Positions 29,326-37,681 of a stretch of 64,000 nt of DNA are shown in pieces. Positions within the stretch are counted from its first letter, which is position 1, and each line of letters opens with the position of its first letter. The DNA is from an uncultured Acidobacteriota bacterium (GTDB taxonomy: Bacteria; Acidobacteriota; UBA6911), in contig CAWHCF010000010.1 of assembly GCA_963827655.1 (NCBI GenBank), forward strand, positions 224,001-288,000, written 5' to 3'. The notes beneath the pieces were generated by a model, which searched no databases, was not told the DNA's origin, and was given only the letters and a program-made list of their open reading frames with translations. A program made the translations under genes and the position numbers.

Positions 29326-30813
29326 TCAGCGCTTGGGCGCAACGTCGGCGTCAAACGCGGCGGTCAGGATCCGATCTCCGACCTTGACCTGAACCCAGAG
29401 GCGATAACGGCCGTCCTGCGGGAACTCGAATGGAAAGGAGACGGTGCCGCCGGCCACGGCGGCGTGCTCGCTGTGATCCACTGGCTTTGTGGTTGCGCCG
29501 GCGCCGCGCTCGAGTACCTGCTGAGCCGCCATCGAGAAACTCCCGGCAGGATGGATGTGGGCGAAGACGGAACCGTCATCGCGCCGGACGGCCATGTGTC
29601 CCAGCATCCCCATATAGGGCTCGAGCGCGGCCGGGCGGCCGTCGCTCCCGCGCACCTGAAAAGTGAGAGATGAGGGCTGCCCCGCGACCAGCTCCTGCTG
29701 TTGCCAGACCATGACGATACCGTCGGCGAGCGGAGCCGCCGGGCTTGCCGCGCCACCAAGCGCCGCGGCGACGTGGAAGGAGTCGTCAGGATCGGGTTCG
29801 GGCGCGGCGCCCGGCGCCGCCGTTGATGGGGCTTCGGGTACGTCGACACGATCGGTCAGAGTCTGCGCATATCCGCTCTCGTGCGTGACGTCGGCGTAGA
29901 CGACGTAGCGGCCGGCGGGGAGCGGCGGCAACCTGACGTCAAAAGTGTTCGGGTCAAGGCGGAGCGGATGGAGGTGCGCGAAGGCGTCGAGCGCCGGCTC
30001 GCGCACGAGGAACATGTGCATCAGCTTGCCATGGTCCGGCACCAACGGACTGAAGCGGTTCCGTCCCGGTTCCTGCGCGAGCCACCGCGGATCGTCGATC
30101 GCCAGGCGGAGCACGCGCTGCGAGGCCACGGAGCGGACGCCGGTGGTGATGTGGAGCGGGCGAAACATGTTGGCGCGGTAGCGGGCGTCGACGCTGTTCC
30201 ACCATGCCCTCCCACCCGCGAGCACGAGCGCCAGAACGAGAGCAGATCCGGCGATGACGCGTCGACCACGGGCCCGGCGGGCCGCGTCGGGAACTTCGCC
30301 GGGCGGAAGCACGGCCTCGCGCGCCGCAGCGCCGAGGATGGTCAGGGCCCCGACAAACAGCAAAAGACCGAGCCCTGCGAACAGCACGCCGAGCCCCCGG
30401 TCGATTCCGAGCCGCCGCGTCGCCACCGACATCACCGGGACGACGGCCTTGCCCGACCCGGACGTGCCTTCGACCGCGACGTGGATGCTGTAGGAGCCGA
30501 AGTCCATGAGCCAGAGCTCCGCGCTCCGAAGGGTCGCGTCGCCGCGCACCGGCTGTGCCAGATCGGGGGCTGGCGCACCTTTGGTGCCGGCGTCCCAGCG
30601 GACGGGTTGGACCGTGACCCTCCCCACCTCCGGGCTCTCGACTCGGACGGTCACTTCGGCGCGTCCCGGCACGACGCCGGGCGGGCGGACGATCACGTCG
30701 ATCGCGTAGGGCCCGGCGTTGCCATGATAGAAAACGGTCGAAGCGCCGATGTGCCCCCAGGTGGCGAACGGTATCGCGATAAGGAAAGCGAGGCGCGCGA
30801 GCGTCCTGATCAC
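29326..30813 (-). CDS. Membrane-anchored periplasmic His/Met-rich putative copper protein with PmoB-like topology
   Basis: Signal peptide ending ATWG|H21; beta-rich domain; 2 TM helices; C-domain PDHGKLMHMF, FAHLHP, YMGMLGHM, FAHIHP; GTG start overlaps the upstream TGA. Confidence 0.75.
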   Translation of the reverse strand: MIRTLARLAFLIAIPFATWGHIGASTVFYHGNAGPYAIDVIVRPPGVVPGRAEVTVRVESPEVGRVTVQPVRWDAGTKGAPAPDLAQPVRGDATLRSAELWLMDFGSYSIHVAVEGTSGSGKAVVPVMSVATRRLGIDRGLGVLFAGLGLLLFVGALTILGAAAREAVLPPGEVPDAARRARGRRVIAGSALVLALVLAGGRAWWNSVDARYRANMFRPLHITTGVRSVASQRVLRLAIDDPRWLAQEPGRNRFSPLVPDHGKLMHMFLVREPALDAFAHLHPLRLDPNTFDVRLPPLPAGRYVVYADVTHESGYAQTLTDRVDVPEAPSTAAPGAAPEPDPDDSFHVAAALGGAASPAAPLADGIVMVWQQQELVAGQPSSLTFQVRGSDGRPAALEPYMGMLGHMAVRRDDGSVFAHIHPAGSFSMAAQQVLERGAGATTKPVDHSEHAAVAGGTVSFPFEFPQDGRYRLWVQVKVGDRILTAAFDADVAPKR

Positions 30814-31983
30814 CGTTTCACCCGCGCCATCCAGCCACCCCAGGCGAGTCCGAGTCGGGCCGAGAGGAAAGAGAACAGGAGCGCCAATCCCAGACCGCGC
30901 AAGCTGAGCGGGTCCTGGGCCTGGTTCCAGAACTGGTAACGCCAGGGACCCGGGCGGGCGTCGTACGACCAGATCCGGTCGCCCCCGAAGAACCAGTTGC
31001 GCGACAGCGGGGAAAGCAGAAACTCGGAGAAAAAGAACTGCGCCGCGAGGAAGAGCGCGAAGAACACCGCGCCCACCGCGGCTGCCAGGACCCAGTCACT
31101 CTTGCAGGTCGCGCGGCGGAGCAGGAGGTCGATCCCAAACGCGGGGATTACAAGGAGCAACGGAAAGGCCGGCGGCACCATGTGGGTCACGCGGTTGTAG
31201 ATCGGGCCGAGCAGCGGTTCGGCCGGAAAGAGCGGCAGAATCCAGAGCATCGCTGCGATCAGCAGCATGTAAACGGCGGCCGCGGTGGTCGCGGGCCAGC
31301 GCAGCTTCGAGCCGCGCGCGGTCGCGAGGAGTAAGATGGGATACAGACCGCAGCTTATCTGATAGAAGAGCGAGGCGTGCTGCTGGTTGGGAGTGTTGTA
31401 CTCCATCACCAGGAGCGCGAACAGCGCAATCAGCACCCCCGCAGAGTAGCCGAAGAGTACCTGGACCCGCCCTGTCGGCGGGCCCCCTCCCGTTGTTCTG
31501 CCATGCTAACGAAAGAAGCAGCGAGCCCAGAATAATTCCGAGGATCCCGGCGGCAAGCACCGTGTGGGGCGGGCTCAGCACCTCGACGTCGAGACCATAG
31601 GCGTTGTGCCACCAGTCATCGAAGGGCGCGGAGGTCAGCATCGCAATCGCGCCCCAGATGGCGACCCACGCTCCGAGCGGCGCCCGGAAACCCCAGACCG
31701 GCACCGATGCGCCGCGTTCCGCGGCGCTTCCGGCAAAGGTCGTCTTGAGCGCGAGCCAACCCGAGGAGAGTCCGCCCAGGATGCCCCCCAGGTACATGGC
31801 CACGTGCGCCGGCGTCCAGAAGGTGTCGCGCCCGATCGTCGAGTGCCATGAGATGTCCCAGATGGCTCCGACGATGATGCTGGTCGAGCCCACTGCGAGG
31901 GCGTACAGGTACCACGGGACAGCGCTCGAACGCTCGGTCGGAACCGGCCCGACCTGGTCGAGAGACACGGCGGCGTTGGACAT
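30810..31983 (-). CDS. Polytopic membrane protein, PmoC/PmoA-like fusion; one frameshift near 31480-31490
   Basis: WDISWHSTIGRDTFWTPAH and FDDWWHNAYGLDVEVLSPPH motifs; C-half KLRWPAT...PAFGIDLLL...AAAVGA; GGAGG RBS; ORFs 31096-31983 and 30810-31436 join across a G-run. Confidence 0.75.
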
Positions 31984-32174
31984 CGAGACCTCCTTGCGTG
32001 GAAGCCTGCATTATACCAAAAAGGTTTTTGATGTTTCTTCGTGACTTTGCGTCCTGGTGGTATTTGTTTCGCAGCGCTAACCACGAAGAGCGAAGAACAC
32101 CAAGAAAGCGTGATAAGATGGCGGCAATGAAGCCAAATCCTGGCTGGGAGCTGAGGATGGTGGTCCGCCCCGTA

Positions 32175-34241
32175 ATGAGAGCCAACGGAGCTGTTCTTTT
32201 GCTCGCCTCGCTGCTCACGGCTGCCTCCGGTGAACTCCCGAATCTCGCGCCCCAGGTGCGCTCGATGTCACCACTCGGCGGCCGCGCGGGTGAGACTGTC
32301 GAGGTGGAGGCTTCCGGACAGTGGCTGGCGAACACACAAAGCGTCGCCTTTGTCCGCCCGGATATCCGCGCCGAACTCGTTTCCTCGGAGTTCGCCAGCG
32401 TGAAGCTCAAGATTTCGATTGGACCTCGGGTTCCCACCGGGCTCCACGATTACCGGCTGCGCACTACGCACGGAACGTTCGTGGGAGTTTTTCATGTCGC
32501 TTCGCTTCCGGCGATCGGCGAGACAGAATCCAACAATGATACTTCGCAGGCGCAGAACATTGCGCTTCCGGCCATCATCCACGGAATAGTGACCGCTCGC
32601 GACTACGATCTGTTCCGGTTCCACGCCCGTCAAGGCGAGACTCTGGTGTTCGATGTGCTGGCGCGGCGCGCCGGGTCAGGCCTCGACGCCACATTGGCGG
32701 TCCTCGACGAACGCGGCAATGAGCTGGACTTCAACGACGACTTCTACATCCACAAGGACCCGCATCTGGCTTTCACGGCGCCTCGCTCCGGCGATTACTT
32801 CGTTCAGGTCAGCGGGAGTGAGGAAGGCGGGTCGCCGTCGAGTCCGTACCGCTTGATCGCCGGCGCTGTTCCCCACATGCTGCGCGCGCTGCCTGCGGGG
32901 GCGCGCCGGGGCTCGTCCACGGAACTGAACATCGCCGGACTGAACCTTGACCGCGTCGAACGCCTGGTGCTCGGAGACGGGCTCGGGGAGGGAAAGGTGG
33001 TTCATGCCAGGCAGAATTCGCTCGCGGTCCGCCTGGAGGTGCCCGCCTCGGTCGCTCCCGGCCCGCATGCGCTGCGCGCGTTCGCGGGCGGAGTGGAAGC
33101 GCCCCTTCCTCTCACCGTGCTGGTTTCCGATTTCGAGGAGGCTCTGGCCTTGCCCGCGCGCAGCCGCGCGCAGCCACAGCCGGTTCGCATTCCTGCGGCG
33201 ATCAGCGGCGTGCTGGAGCAGCGCCGGACCGCGCATTTCTACACCTTCGAAGTCAAGTCGGGTGACCGGCTGGTCTTCGAGGTGGACGCCATGAAGCTTG
33301 GTTACCTTGTGGATCCCGTGGTTGGCATCTACACCCTGAATGGGGAGTTGCTCGCCTCCGACGATGACCGCTTGCAGCAAAACGGCGATGAACCACCCAA
33401 CCTGGACCCCTATCTCGTGTACCAGTTTGACAAAGCCGGTCAATATCTCGCCATGATTCGCGATCTGGCGCAGCGCGGCGATCAGAATTACCTGTACCGG
33501 CTCGCGATCTACCCGGCCAAACCGGATTTCGACGTGAGGGCTTTGACGCCGGCAATTACCTTGTACCGGGGTCAGACGGTGCTGCTTCCCGTGCGGGTGC
33601 GCAGACACGGCGGCTGGGAAACGCCCGTCGATGTCTGGTTGGAGAACCTGCCGCCAGGAGTGACCACGGACAAACGCGTTGCGGAACCCAAGCCGACCAT
33701 AGTCAAAGACAACTGTGCGCTGGACCGGCGCCTCGACGGCACAAATGTCGACCTGCCCCTTCATGTCTCCGCCAGTGCGTCGCCTGGTTCCTATTCGCTT
33801 CGCCTGCGGGCGCGCGGCGAGTACAGTGGCCGCGCCGTCGAACACAGTGCCGAGATCCTGTACAAATGGGAGTCCGTCGGCAAAGTGACCGGGGCCATCG
33901 CCGATCAGACTCTGGTGGCAACCGTCACGGAATTCCCGCCCGTGATCCTCGATGTGCCCAGCACATTCACCATCACGCCGGGCAAGCCGGCGCGCATGCG
34001 AGTGCGCGTGACGCGGTTCGACGGCGCTGAATCTCCCCTGACCATCGAGCCTGAAGCGCCTGTCGACGGCCTGAGATTCGAGAACAACGTTCTGGCCGCG
34101 GGAGCGGAACAGGTGGAATTGCGCATCATCGCGTCGGAGCTGGTGAAACCCGGCACTTTCCGGCTCCGCGCCGGTCCTGCGCTGTCGCAGAGCATCACAT
34201 TCAAGTTGCCGAGTCAGGGCGAGGAGGAGGACCCGGAGTGA
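32175..34241 (+). CDS. Secreted PPC (pre-peptidase C-terminal) domain protein of the DUF1549/DUF1501 cluster
   Basis: PLGGRAGETVEV, ETESNN, DLFRFHARQGE, DDF...DPHLAF; start uncertain (32157 or 32175). Confidence 0.75.
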   Translation: MRANGAVLLLASLLTAASGELPNLAPQVRSMSPLGGRAGETVEVEASGQWLANTQSVAFVRPDIRAELVSSEFASVKLKISIGPRVPTGLHDYRLRTTHGTFVGVFHVASLPAIGETESNNDTSQAQNIALPAIIHGIVTARDYDLFRFHARQGETLVFDVLARRAGSGLDATLAVLDERGNELDFNDDFYIHKDPHLAFTAPRSGDYFVQVSGSEEGGSPSSPYRLIAGAVPHMLRALPAGARRGSSTELNIAGLNLDRVERLVLGDGLGEGKVVHARQNSLAVRLEVPASVAPGPHALRAFAGGVEAPLPLTVLVSDFEEALALPARSRAQPQPVRIPAAISGVLEQRRTAHFYTFEVKSGDRLVFEVDAMKLGYLVDPVVGIYTLNGELLASDDDRLQQNGDEPPNLDPYLVYQFDKAGQYLAMIRDLAQRGDQNYLYRLAIYPAKPDFDVRALTPAITLYRGQTVLLPVRVRRHGGWETPVDVWLENLPPGVTTDKRVAEPKPTIVKDNCALDRRLDGTNVDLPLHVSASASPGSYSLRLRARGEYSGRAVEHSAEILYKWESVGKVTGAIADQTLVATVTEFPPVILDVPSTFTITPGKPARMRVRVTRFDGAESPLTIEPEAPVDGLRFENNVLAAGAEQVELRIIASELVKPGTFRLRAGPALSQSITFKLPSQGEEEDPE

Positions 34242-36395
34242 TCTTTGCAGCCGCCGTGCTTTTCGTATCGGTTTTCGCGCCCGTGGCGGCCGGCGAGAGC
34301 CCCAGCTTCGCCAACGACATCGTCCCGATCCTGACCAGGTCCGGCTGTGCCAACTCCAACTGTCACGGCTCGATCCGTGGTCAGGCGGGATTCAAGCTGT
34401 CCCTGTTCGGCTATGAGCCCGAACTCGACTATGACGCCATTGTAAGAGACGCGAACGGGAGGCGTATCGACCGCGCGGATCCAACCCGGAGCCTCATTCT
34501 GGCCAAGCCGACCTTTGCCATCCCGCACGGCGGCGGCGAACGCTTCAAGGCCGGGTCGCTCGAGTACAACGGCATCCTGGAGTGGATCAAATCCGGAGCC
34601 GCGTTCGACACGCCGGGCGCGCCGCGGCTGAAGGAGCTTCAGGTGTCGCCCGCCGAGATGCTGATCACCGGCATCAATTCTCGAGCCGGCCTGTCGGTCG
34701 CAGGCGCATACACGGACGGCTCAATAGCTGACCTCACGAAAAAAGTGCAGTACACAGCCAATGACGAGTCGGTGATCGAGGTAAATGCGGCTGGTGAAAT
34801 CCGCACCCTCAGGGCCGGCGAGACGGCGGTCATGGTCCGCACGCTCGGCAAGGCAGTTGCCGTGCGCGTCGCGGTGGTGGCCCAACCGCCCCGGGCGAAT
34901 TATCCCGAGACGCCGTGCGCCAACTTCATCGACGATCTCGTCGTCGCCAAGCTCAAGCGGATCAACATCGTTCCCTCGCGGTTGTCGAGCGATCACGAAT
35001 TCCTGCGCCGCGTATATCTCGACACCGTCGGCGTGCTGCCCTCACTCGAAGAAACCCGCGCTTTTCTGGAGTCAAAGGATCCCGGCAAGCGAGCTCGGTT
35101 GATCGACACGCTTCTCGAGCGGCCGGAGTTTGCCGAGGTTTGGGCCACCCGCTTCAGCGACCTGTTTCGAGTAGGCTTGCTCGACCAGGGCAACAAAGGC
35201 GGCCGGCTGATCTACAACTGGATGCGCAAGGCGATCCGCGAGGACAAGCCCTATAATGAGTTCGTCACCGAACTCCTGACCGCCTCCGGCAATCTCTTCT
35301 ACAACCCGACGGCCAACTTCTATTACGTCACCGAATTCGCCGAACCGGAGAATTACGCCACCAACATAAGCCAGGTCTTTCTGGGAGTGCGGCTCGAGTG
35401 CGCGCGGTGCCACAATCATCCCTGGGAAAAATGGACCCAGGATGACTTCTGGGGCTTTGCGGGATTCTTTGCCCGCATGGGCGTGAAAGACACGTATCAG
35501 AATGATGAGAGTCAGATCCACCTGAAGTTGAAAGGCGAGGTGCTTCACCCGAAAACCAAGAAACCGGTCGCCGCCAAGTACCTGGACGGTCCGGCCGAAA
35601 CCGAAGGTCCTGATGAGGACATTCGGGAAAAGCTCGCCGCGTGGATGACGTCACCCGACAATCCCTGGTTCGCGCGGGCCATCGTGAACCGAATCGTGAA
35701 GCACTATCTGGGCCGCGGTCTGGTCGAACCCTTGGATGATTTCCGCGTGACGAATCCGCCCAGCAATGAGGCGCTGCTGGACGCGTTGGCGAAGGATTTC
35801 GTCCGCAGCGGATACAGCTTGCGGCATACCATTCGACTTATTCTCAACTCCCGCGTGTACCAGCTCTCCGAGTGAGCCGAACGAAACCAACCGTGATGAC
35901 GAGATCAACTATTCGCGCTATCCCGTCAAGCGTCTCATGGCTGAGCAGCTGGTCGATGCGATCACACAGGTAACCGGCGTGCCTGAGAAGTACCAGGGGT
36001 TTCCGCTGGGTACGCGCGCCATGAGCATCCCGCGAGGCGCGCCTTCTTATTTTCTGCAAGCCTTCGGCCGCATGAAGGCGCGCGAGGTCATCTGCGAACG
36101 CGACCTGCAGCCCGCGATGAACCAGGCGATGCACCTGATCAGCGGCGATACGTTACAGCGGCAAATAACGGCGAAGAACAGCCGGCTCGCGCAATGGCTG
36201 GAAGACCCTTCGCTGTCGGATGAAGAAGTGTTGAAGCGGCTGTTTCTGACCACGCTGGTGCGCGAGCCGGATTCCCGTGAGATCTCACTGGCGCTCGCGC
36301 CCATCCGTCTCCGCGGACCCGAAGCGCGCCGGCAAGCGTTCGAAGACGCCCTGTGGGCTTTGTTCAACTCAAAAGAGTTTACTTACAACCACTGA
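34238..36395 (+). CDS. DUF1549/DUF1553 domain protein with Ig-like domain, frameshift near 35870
   Basis: SFANDIVPIL..GCANSNCHG, FLRRVYLD, LECARCHNHP, NPWFARAIVNR, LWALFNSKEF. Confidence 0.88.
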
Positions 36396-37681
36396 TGAAA
36401 CATTTTGATCGCCGCGCATTCTTGAGAATCGGTTCGACCAGCGTTTTCGGCCTGCTGACCTACGGAGAGGTATTGCGGTTGCGGGCGCAGTCCCCCGCGC
36501 CGGCCAGACGCGATGTCTCGGTGATCCATTTGTGGCTTACGGGCGGCGTGAGCCAGCTCGACACGTGGGATCCCAAGCCTGACGCCGACGGCCGCTACCG
36601 GGGCCAGTTCAAGCCGATCGAAACCAATGTCAGCGGCATACGGATCTCCGAGCAGCTTCCGCTGACCGCCCGCCAGGCCCACAGGTACGTCATTATCCGC
36701 TCGATGACGCATAAGCAAGCCGCTCATGAAGCCGCCTGCAACCTGATTCAAAGCGGTCACAGCCCCCTGCCTACGATCCAATTTCCGGCTATCCAGACGG
36801 TGGCCGGAAAGGAGTTGCCGCGAGGAGGCGATCTGCCCTCGGTGATCGCGATTCCGGCGGCTACCGGGAGCTGGGACAAGGCTGGTTTTCTGGGGCCACA
36901 TTTCAGCCCATTCGAGGCGGGCAACCCGAATGTCGACAACTACCGCGTTCGCGATCTGGATCTTCCCCTCGGCGTCGATTGGTCGCGCGTGGACCATCGC
37001 AGATCGCTCCTTACGGTCGTGGACGAGAAATTCCGCCGTCTCGATACCAGAGGGGTCATCGAAAGCATGGACGCCTACTATCAGACGGCGTTCGAGCTCA
37101 TGCAGTCGGAGAAGGCGAAGAAGGCATTCCGCATCGACGAGGAGCCGGACGCGATGCGGGACAAGTATGGCCGCACGTCGCTCGGCCAGGGCTCTCTGCT
37201 CGCGCGCCGGCTGATCGAGGCCGGGGCCCGGTTCGTCACGGTGTCCCGCGGTTTCAACACCTGGGACCACCACAAGGATATCTTTCCTCTCTTGAAGAAC
37301 GACTTTCTGCCGGAGCTGGACCGCGCCTTTTCGTCGCTCCTGGAGGACCTTCACCAGCGCGGGCTGCTCGAAAGCACTCTTGTGATCGTCACCGGCGAGT
37401 TCGGGCGGACGCCCGAGATCAATGCCATGGGCGGCCGGGACCACTGGCCGAACGTTTTCTCTCTCGTAATCGCCGGCGCAGGAATCACAGGCGGCCGCGT
37501 CTGGGGCTCCTCGGATGAAAAGGGTATGTTTGTTCGCGACAATCCCGTTCAGGTCGCCGACCTGGTCGCCACCATCTACCGGAAGCTCGGGATTGACTAC
37601 GAGAAGGAGTACCAGAGTAACATCGGCCGCCCGGTAAAGCTCACGGATAACGGAAAGCCGCTCGACTTTCTGCTGACTTGA
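36395..37681 (+). CDS. DUF1501 domain protein (Tat signal)
   Basis: DRRAFL, GGVSQLDTWDPKP, LLARRLIEAGARFV, WDHH, GEFGRTP, GRDHWP. Confidence 0.9.
   Translation: MKHFDRRAFLRIGSTSVFGLLTYGEVLRLRAQSPAPARRDVSVIHLWLTGGVSQLDTWDPKPDADGRYRGQFKPIETNVSGIRISEQLPLTARQAHRYVIIRSMTHKQAAHEAACNLIQSGHSPLPTIQFPAIQTVAGKELPRGGDLPSVIAIPAATGSWDKAGFLGPHFSPFEAGNPNVDNYRVRDLDLPLGVDWSRVDHRRSLLTVVDEKFRRLDTRGVIESMDAYYQTAFELMQSEKAKKAFRIDEEPDAMRDKYGRTSLGQGSLLARRLIEAGARFVTVSRGFNTWDHHKDIFPLLKNDFLPELDRAFSSLLEDLHQRGLLESTLVIVTGEFGRTPEINAMGGRDHWPNVFSLVIAGAGITGGRVWGSSDEKGMFVRDNPVQVADLVATIYRKLGIDYEKEYQSNIGRPVKLTDNGKPLDFLLT

Follow-up and report, generated by a model that had tools for sequence, protein, structure and literature searches.

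Does a gene that carries both metal-ligand motifs of a copper membrane monooxygenase (CuMMO) subunit necessarily encode that subunit? The question is raised by a locus on the minus strand of contig CAWHCF010000010.1 (assembly GCA_963827655.1) of an uncultured Acidobacteriota bacterium, in a stretch of 64,000 nucleotides (positions 224,001 to 288,000) that is referred to here as the window. Within the open reading frame (ORF) 31096..31983 a first-pass annotation of the sequence had pointed out two Asp/His/His motifs and likened them to the copper sites CuC and CuD of PmoC. According to passages in PMC11725843, CuC and CuD form the active-site pocket of particulate methane monooxygenase (pMMO), and according to that source and PMC12801151 the active site of pMMO and ammonia monooxygenase (AMO) is a matter of debate, which turns on which of the two sites is the catalytic one and on whether metal occupies both. 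Judged from sequence comparison, the resemblance of the metal sites to PmoC/AmoC is real, but the gene is not PmoC. The motifs occupy the first 165 residues of a protein of about 390 amino acids, the other half of which is PmoA-like in fold, and the gene is followed by that of a conserved partner protein.

Two Asp/His/His motifs in a four-helix bundle

Motif 1, WDISWHSTIGRDTFWTPAH (31804..31857, minus strand), contains D43, H47 and H60 and aligns with the CuC Asp/His/His of PmoC/AmoC. Motif 2, FDDWWHNAYGLDVEVLSPPH (31564..31620, minus strand), contains D122, H126 and H140 and is co-linear with the CuD Asn/His/His, with Asp in place of Asn. Translation bore out the six residues, their numbering and the spacings of 4+13 and 4+14 exactly as first annotated. 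The span 31564-31857 runs precisely from D43 to H140, since the codon of D43 lies at 31857-31855 and that of H140 at 31566-31564. These spacings equal those of N. briensis AmoC, for which passages of PMC12801151 give Asp134/His138/His151 at CuC and Asn205/His209/His223 at CuD. They also equal those of a metagenomic PmoC alignment (A3, 34 sequences), whose invariant residues are D128/H132/H145 and N199/H203/H217. Alignment A3, together with alignments of PmoA (A6, 21 sequences) and PmoB (A5, 29 sequences), was built from pmoCAB/amoCAB loci fetched from metagenomes by motif pattern.

Conservation of the ligand residues was assessed in an alignment (A1) of 59 full-length homologues picked by whole-protein similarity and 33-84% identical to P0001, an intact homologue of 390 amino acids. 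D43 is kept in all 59 sequences with no replacement. H60 and D122 are each kept in 58, with a single replacement by Ala and by Glu, respectively. The remaining three histidines vary more: H47 is kept in 49/59 (replaced by Glu, Asp, Gln or Thr), H126 in 52/59 (Gln, Thr or Ser) and H140 in 52/59 (Gln, Phe or Glu). All six residues are retained together in 48 of the 59 homologues and in 9/9 phylum-sample homologues (unpublished G024 excluded), which were again picked by whole-protein similarity and reach down to 33% identity, and thus hold up as a conserved set. The Asp that replaces the CuD Asn, a substitution already remarked upon in the window, is a feature of the family, being present in 58 of the 59. 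Loci recovered with a pattern search (see below) were left out of these counts because they had been chosen by the motifs themselves.

The protein was modelled with AlphaFold 2 (AF2) without templates, at a mean predicted local distance difference test (pLDDT) of 93.5 and a predicted template modelling score (pTM) of 0.91. Residues 24-164 of the model form a four-helix bundle of transmembrane (TM) helices, TM1 (24-49), TM2 (58-84), TM3 (103-129) and TM4 (138-164). D43 and H47 lie at the end of TM1 and H60 at the start of TM2; in the same manner D122 and H126 end TM3 and H140 starts TM4. Counts of lysine and arginine over A1 place the N-terminus, the loop between TM2 and TM3 and the C-terminus inside, and the loops between TM1 and TM2 and between TM3 and TM4 outside. 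From this topology and the positions at the helix ends, all six residues are predicted to lie on the same, periplasmic face of the membrane rather than on opposite faces.

The two hairpins of the bundle are recognizably related to each other. An hhalign comparison of hairpin 20-90 with hairpin 99-168 of the family gave a probability of 91.7% (E 7.8e-7, 59 columns), pairing D43 with D122, H47 with H126 and H60 with H140 across a one-residue indel. The ancestral internal duplication that had been suggested from the symmetry of the two sites is thereby supported for this family. Such duplicated hairpins are recognizable here but not in PmoC, and at the level of sequence the family keeps a symmetry that PmoC has lost. 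The repeat suggests how a two-site pocket could have arisen.

Relation to the CuMMO subunits

When the A1 profile was run against 177,635 distinct PDB sequences it gave three matches, all of them AmoC chains (9leg_C, E 2.8e-4; 9cl6_C, E 0.0044; 9pxf_G, E 0.016) and all with alignments that cover the first motif. Direct comparison of A1 with A3 by hhalign gave a probability of 85.5% (E 5.7e-6) over 86 columns, A1 41-139 aligning to PmoC 138-228, and set D43/H47/H60 opposite the Asp/His/His of CuC and D122/H126/H140 opposite the Asn/His/His of CuD. Taken alone, the first hairpin matches the CuC hairpin of PmoC with a probability of 95.5% (E 1.5e-8). This 26-column match reaches past the ligands as W-H-x-[ST]-I-x-R-D-[TS]-x-x-T-P-x-H; the first-pass annotation had named W-H-x-T-I-x-R-D-T-x-x-T-P-x-H as the shared string. 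As only the first hairpin is significant when aligned alone, the homology claim rests on it, and the equivalence of the second site to CuD follows from co-linearity, identical spacing and the internal repeat. The proposed likeness to the PmoC copper sites therefore stood, and was specific, for motif 1 in both the PDB and the hhalign comparisons; on the CuD side the match was not significant by itself. A single-sequence search of the PDB with P0001 returned 0 matches at E<=10, and PmoC was not among the 50 matches listed in a wide structural (VIA) search.

PmoC/AmoC (PF04896, NF041641/TIGR03078; 9leg_C, 9cl6_C, 9pxf_G, 7s4m_C) is nonetheless the closest known system for the N-terminal domain. 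The two share the core four-helix bundle, a CuC-type triad (Asp-x3-His-x12-His, here D43/H47/H60) within the same extended motif, a second triad x-x3-His-x13-His co-linear with CuD that retains the spacing and both histidines of the PmoC pattern Asn-x3-His-x13-His, and the location of both triads at periplasmic helix ends. The remainder of the PmoC architecture is different. PmoC is a free-standing protein of about 250 amino acids that begins with a region of some 120 residues with extra helices, whereas in this family that region is absent, only 23 residues precede the bundle, the loop between the motifs has 8 additional residues, Asp takes the place of the CuD Asn, and the C-like domain is fused to an A-like domain to give about 390 amino acids in total.

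The protein falls short of the cut-off of every Pfam and NCBIfam model, its sub-threshold matches being to the AmoC/PmoC models: for PF04896 it scores 13.5 bits where 26.7 are required (E 0.048, the match being confined to residues 41-66), for NF041641 15.3 against 319 bits and for TIGR03078 14.5 against 280.6 bits. PF04896 appears at E<=1 in 13 of the 59 homologues (best E 0.0011), in none of them above cut-off. Membership in any of these three families was rejected on these scores. The protein is not a PmoC: besides scoring under these cut-offs it continues into a PmoA-fold domain, and its gene has a frameshift in the window (see below). Neither PF04896 nor PF02461 has a match above cut-off anywhere in the 8.18-Mb source genome, in which no true CuMMO was thus detected.

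Residues 165-390 adopt a PmoA/AmoA-like fold in the AF2 model. A Foldseek search with the whole model found nothing at E<=1e-3; PmoA/AmoA and AmoC chains were listed with high probabilities. Relative to PmoA/AmoA (PF02461; 7ev9_B, 4phz_B, 7s4h_B, 9cl6_B, 9leg_A) this domain differs in being joined covalently to the C-like domain. The succession of a C-like core and an A-like fold is the same as the order of genes in xmoCAB. In an xmoCAB system C, A and B are three separate subunits with B homologous to PmoB; here a single polypeptide contains both the C-like and the A-like part. On the predicted fold, homology of the A-like half to PmoA is plausible.

The partner gene (29326..30813, minus strand) encodes 495 amino acids; its GTG start and the upstream gene's stop codon overlap (GTGA). 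Its product is predicted to have a signal peptide, a histidine (His21) that the model places as the first residue after it, a β-sandwich at 27-129, TM helices at 139-166 and 177-214, and two further β-sandwich domains. It is rich in His and Met and has putative YtkA/CrdA-like domains. Invariant in 51 partner sequences are H21, H261, H266, H280, H282, H406, H419, H421, M103, M401 and M403. Homologues of the partner number at least 2678, without a Pfam domain; members of its alignment match the Pfam models for YtkA-like (13/51) and CopC (4/51), the CopC matches staying below cut-off, and the window's own copy has no Pfam match at E<=1. The profile of the partner alignment (A2) gave 0 PDB matches.

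This layout is reminiscent of PmoB/AmoB (PF04744), which likewise has a signal peptide, a mature N-terminal His, a periplasmic sandwich, two TM helices and further periplasmic sandwiches; the partner, too, is encoded immediately downstream. The partner differs in having three sandwich domains instead of two and in its His/Met motifs (HLHP, MGM). The Foldseek and VIA lists for the partner contain no PmoB row; they are dominated by generic Ig-like folds, the model being of more than 400 residues. The structural scores against YtkA-like (PF13115), CopC (PF04234; 5icu_A) and H. pylori CrdA (9ll2_A) are near those of generic Ig-like folds, and the known YtkA, CopC and CrdA proteins, unlike the partner, are soluble or have a single anchor, and none is coupled to a membrane protein of the PmoC-like kind.

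The two genes occur together. Immediately downstream, in the same orientation, the partner gene is present in all 68 loci whose flank is 1500 nt or longer, in 11 of 12 with a shorter flank, and in 9/10 phylum-sample loci (8/9 without the unpublished G024). Adjacent NCBI locus tags also couple the two families (e.g. VHC97_07315/07310 and VE685_00200/00195). Co-folding of the two proteins gave a score of 0.83 in all three runs, while the best of three controls had 0.01; among 80 solved complexes 58 attain the former mark, and among 110 mismatched pairs 2 do so. At least 89% of contacts are shared between runs, with a partner pLDDT of at least 82. In the predicted interface the two TM helices of the partner pack on TM3 (103-124), and its N-terminal domain (47-50, 70-82, 101-104) sits on residues 126-138 (126-134, 137-138) and the loop 255-262. 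The stretch 126-138 holds H126 and flanks H140 of motif 2. The modelling supports the view that the PmoC-like protein and the partner bind each other.

The family is large. The N-terminal 170 residues match at least 7967 proteins (E<=1e-3), mostly of 385-400 amino acids; among the matches listed, every source name is 'hypothetical protein' and none has a precomputed Pfam domain. A scan of 1.84 billion representatives gave 2115 clusters at 50% identity with E<=1e-3, 1252 with E<=1e-10 and 298 with E<=1e-30. A pattern search of a species-level genome collection, built on a 12-sequence alignment, returned at least 600 pattern-matched stretches, of which at least 577 encode relatives; the best 80 of these loci were used for the neighbourhood counts. 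They come from metagenome-assembled genomes (MAGs) of Acidobacteriota (Thermoanaerobaculia, Vicinamibacterales, Blastocatellia) and Gemmatimonadota (Gemmatimonadales, Longimicrobiales), with further labels of Verrucomicrobiota, Methylomirabilota, Eisenbacteria and Microscillaceae. The carrier record of one locus (L150) bears the title of a Klebsiella pneumoniae MAG; since every other carrier belongs to a soil phylum, the bin is probably mislabelled or contaminated. Within the source's own phylum the distribution is patchy, with the gene in 10 of 201 genomes sampled. Paper searches, which did not extend to supplements, found no description of the family. Since no Pfam or NCBIfam model covers it and all listed names are 'hypothetical protein', naming the family would annotate thousands of genes from soil metagenomes.

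One member departs from the two-gene format. In P0022 (481 amino acids, on an 8.38-Mb contig) some 180 N-terminal residues of the PmoC-like type are followed at once by the partner's second TM helix and its C-terminal domains, the PmoA-like domain and the first sandwich of the partner being absent. This single sequence could represent a deletion or a genuine fusion.

Possible roles of the two-gene unit

What might such a unit do? We tentatively propose that the single-chain membrane protein of ~390 amino acids and its partner form a copper-dependent oxidase or monooxygenase complex that is a distant relative of two CuMMO subunits, a reading that we place a little short of an even chance. The narrower statement, that they make up a membrane complex of two subunits that binds metal and is homologous to the C core of the CuMMOs, is probable. 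In the proposed arrangement the downstream gene, coupled to the first in translation, would supply a bitopic partner in complex with the PmoC-like protein, and this partner would take up or deliver periplasmic copper, its sandwiches resembling YtkA, CrdA and CopC. The two triads in the outer leaflet would hold a single metal ion or a pair of them, copper being the likeliest metal, and the PmoA-like half would line a lipid-facing pocket beside them. The complex might then oxidise some membrane-soluble substrate, and would not use methane or ammonia for energy. Metal identity, catalysis and substrate are in each case what we infer.

A number of results weigh against this proposal. At least one of the six residues is altered in 11 of the 59 homologues, among which a subgroup reads D-E/D-H-D-Q-Q or similar, keeping the two Asp and H60 and losing three His; the subgroup (P0145, P0167, P0175 and P0176, also P0183 and P0239, in A1) may be a variant with a different metal or with none. 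The second hairpin alone gave no significant match to the CuD hairpin of PmoC (hhalign probability 0.1%, E 0.54), and comparison of the first hairpin of PmoC with its own second detected no internal repeat. Sequence similarity to PmoA was not detectable with A6 (hhalign probability 2%, E 0.023), nor was homology of the partner to PmoB with A5 (hhalign probability 0.1%). Finally, no neighbour other than the partner is conserved: the largest clusters are shadow ORFs of the pair and the next real cluster is found in at most 11 of the 80 loci. A catabolic monooxygenase would not usually lack a conserved dehydrogenase or redox-partner neighbour, and the lack agrees better with a role in housekeeping or copper handling.

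Such a copper-handling role could be played without any enzyme, the pair being a copper-trafficking module in which the partner hands periplasmic copper to the triads for storage, buffering, import or passing on to cuproenzymes; it would then be a functional analogue of CopC-CopD or YcnI-YcnJ. The YtkA-like and CopC matches of partner members speak for this, as do the placement of the partner's N-terminal domain over motif 2 in the predicted interface, the conserved unit of only two genes without metabolic neighbours, the single copy in the source genome and the wide occurrence among ordinary soil heterotrophs of several phyla. Yet the candidate ligands are all periplasmic, and no conserved path of ligands across the membrane was seen, as an importer would need. 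In addition, no Pfam CopD or CopC match reaches cut-off, and a trafficking module would leave the retained PmoA-fold domain without an obvious role. We consider trafficking possible, if on the unlikely side; it stays a strong rival because no metabolic neighbour is conserved and the partner is chaperone-like. Our lean towards a redox enzyme comes from the confinement of the candidate ligands to the periplasmic leaflet, the retention of both sets of active-site ligands and that of the A-like domain. It is improbable, in our view, that the likeness to PmoC arose by convergence, or is so ancient that nothing can be read from it, and that the protein instead has two 2-His-1-carboxylate sites for Zn, Fe or Mn, as a hydrolase, a di-metal oxidase or a structural membrane protein whose function has nothing to do with that of CuMMOs. 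Asp in place of the CuD Asn does yield two classical triads of that kind, and the family-model scores of 13.5 and 15.3 bits are far under their cut-offs. Against this, the profile search of the PDB finds AmoC and nothing else, the match of the first hairpin extends well past the ligands, and a C-like followed by an A-like fold in xmoCAB order is hard to obtain by chance.

To our knowledge the evolutionary origin of the pMMO and AMO enzymes is unknown. A bolder and rather doubtful extension is that the two-gene unit is a deep, unrecognized sister lineage of the CuMMOs, possibly nearer to the ancestral form, a single-chain C-A protein that would still show the duplication of hairpins from which CuC and CuD arose, and in which the symmetric triads would act as a two-metal O2-activating centre on a lipophilic substrate. 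On that view, soil species in their hundreds to thousands, from Acidobacteriota, Gemmatimonadota, Verrucomicrobiota and other phyla, would possess such an enzyme. The family can be regarded as an independent natural experiment on the CuC/CuD site, abundant, retaining both sets of ligands in a simpler and fused two-gene format and with a symmetric Asp variant of CuD.

The frameshift and the surrounding genes

In the window the gene is read in two frames. The 5' part (frame A, 31474..31983, minus strand) encodes residues 1 to ~170 with the PmoC-core-like four-helix bundle, and the 3' part (frame B, 30810..31476, minus strand) encodes residues ~170-390 and the stop codon with the PmoA/AmoA-fold domain. 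The two overlap at 31474..31476 (minus strand), where a one-base insertion shifts the frame after about residue 168-170. The ORF 31096..31983 accordingly loses its membrane-protein character past residue ~168, and the true protein resumes in ORF 30810..31505. A Shine-Dalgarno-like AAGGAGG was read from the sequence at 31989..31995 (minus strand), 5 nt upstream of the ATG at 31983-31981.

That the window copy carries an inserted base follows from the relatives, as every relative contig that covers the site lacks it. In three soil DNA runs (X1-X3) all site-covering contigs of close relatives have one base fewer at 31474 or 31476, the contigs without the extra base making up the whole depth (10.4/10.4 in X1, 5.31/5.31 in X2 and 11.5/11.5 in X3); these contigs are from related strains and are not reads of the source sample. 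P0001, 99% identical over the N-terminal region searched, has no break at the frameshift point, and at least the two closest of the relatives checked, from soil metagenomes, are intact. The source genome has a single copy, matched to P0001 in two pieces (residues 1-169 at 98% and 162-390 at 96% identity).

A programmed frameshift was rejected, since the relatives lack the extra base, P0001 is intact, and the split copy of a complete-genome relative (G110) breaks elsewhere. A separate question from the role of the family is whether the frameshift is real and the gene here a dead pseudogene, its motifs functionless in this genome. The reading in two frames favours this, and so does the copy in G110, which is also split, by an internal TGA at about residues 208-215, in a different place (the two halves, L011 and L015, lie on one contig in two frames). 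We regard it as unlikely, for the close relatives in the three runs and P0001 are unbroken and both halves are otherwise free of stops and near-identical to P0001. There is also a second frame-split gene in the window, encoding a PSCyt2 (DUF1549)/PSD1 (DUF1553) protein (34238-36395, plus strand), which makes an assembly indel likelier than a true pseudogene.

Contigs of a soil metatranscriptome (RNA run X15) differ from 31009-31331 at 7 of 323 bases and from 31554-31841, which covers the motif region, at 1 of 288, with DNA carry-over possible. These near-identical contigs from an RNA library suggest that the PmoC-like gene is transcribed in soil.

Divergently transcribed from the gene pair is a gene at 31998-34241 (plus strand) for an exported protein of 747 amino acids with two PPC (pre-peptidase C-terminal) domains and a Qn_am_d_aIII-like domain; it is not kept beside the pair in the other genomes examined. 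The PSCyt2/PSD1 gene that follows is divided between two overlapping ORFs near 35766-35875, with PSD1 profile positions 2-84 at the end of ORF 34238..35875 and positions 85-241 in ORF 35766..36395. Downstream of it lie a DUF1501 gene (36353..37681) and then a ThuA-like gene.

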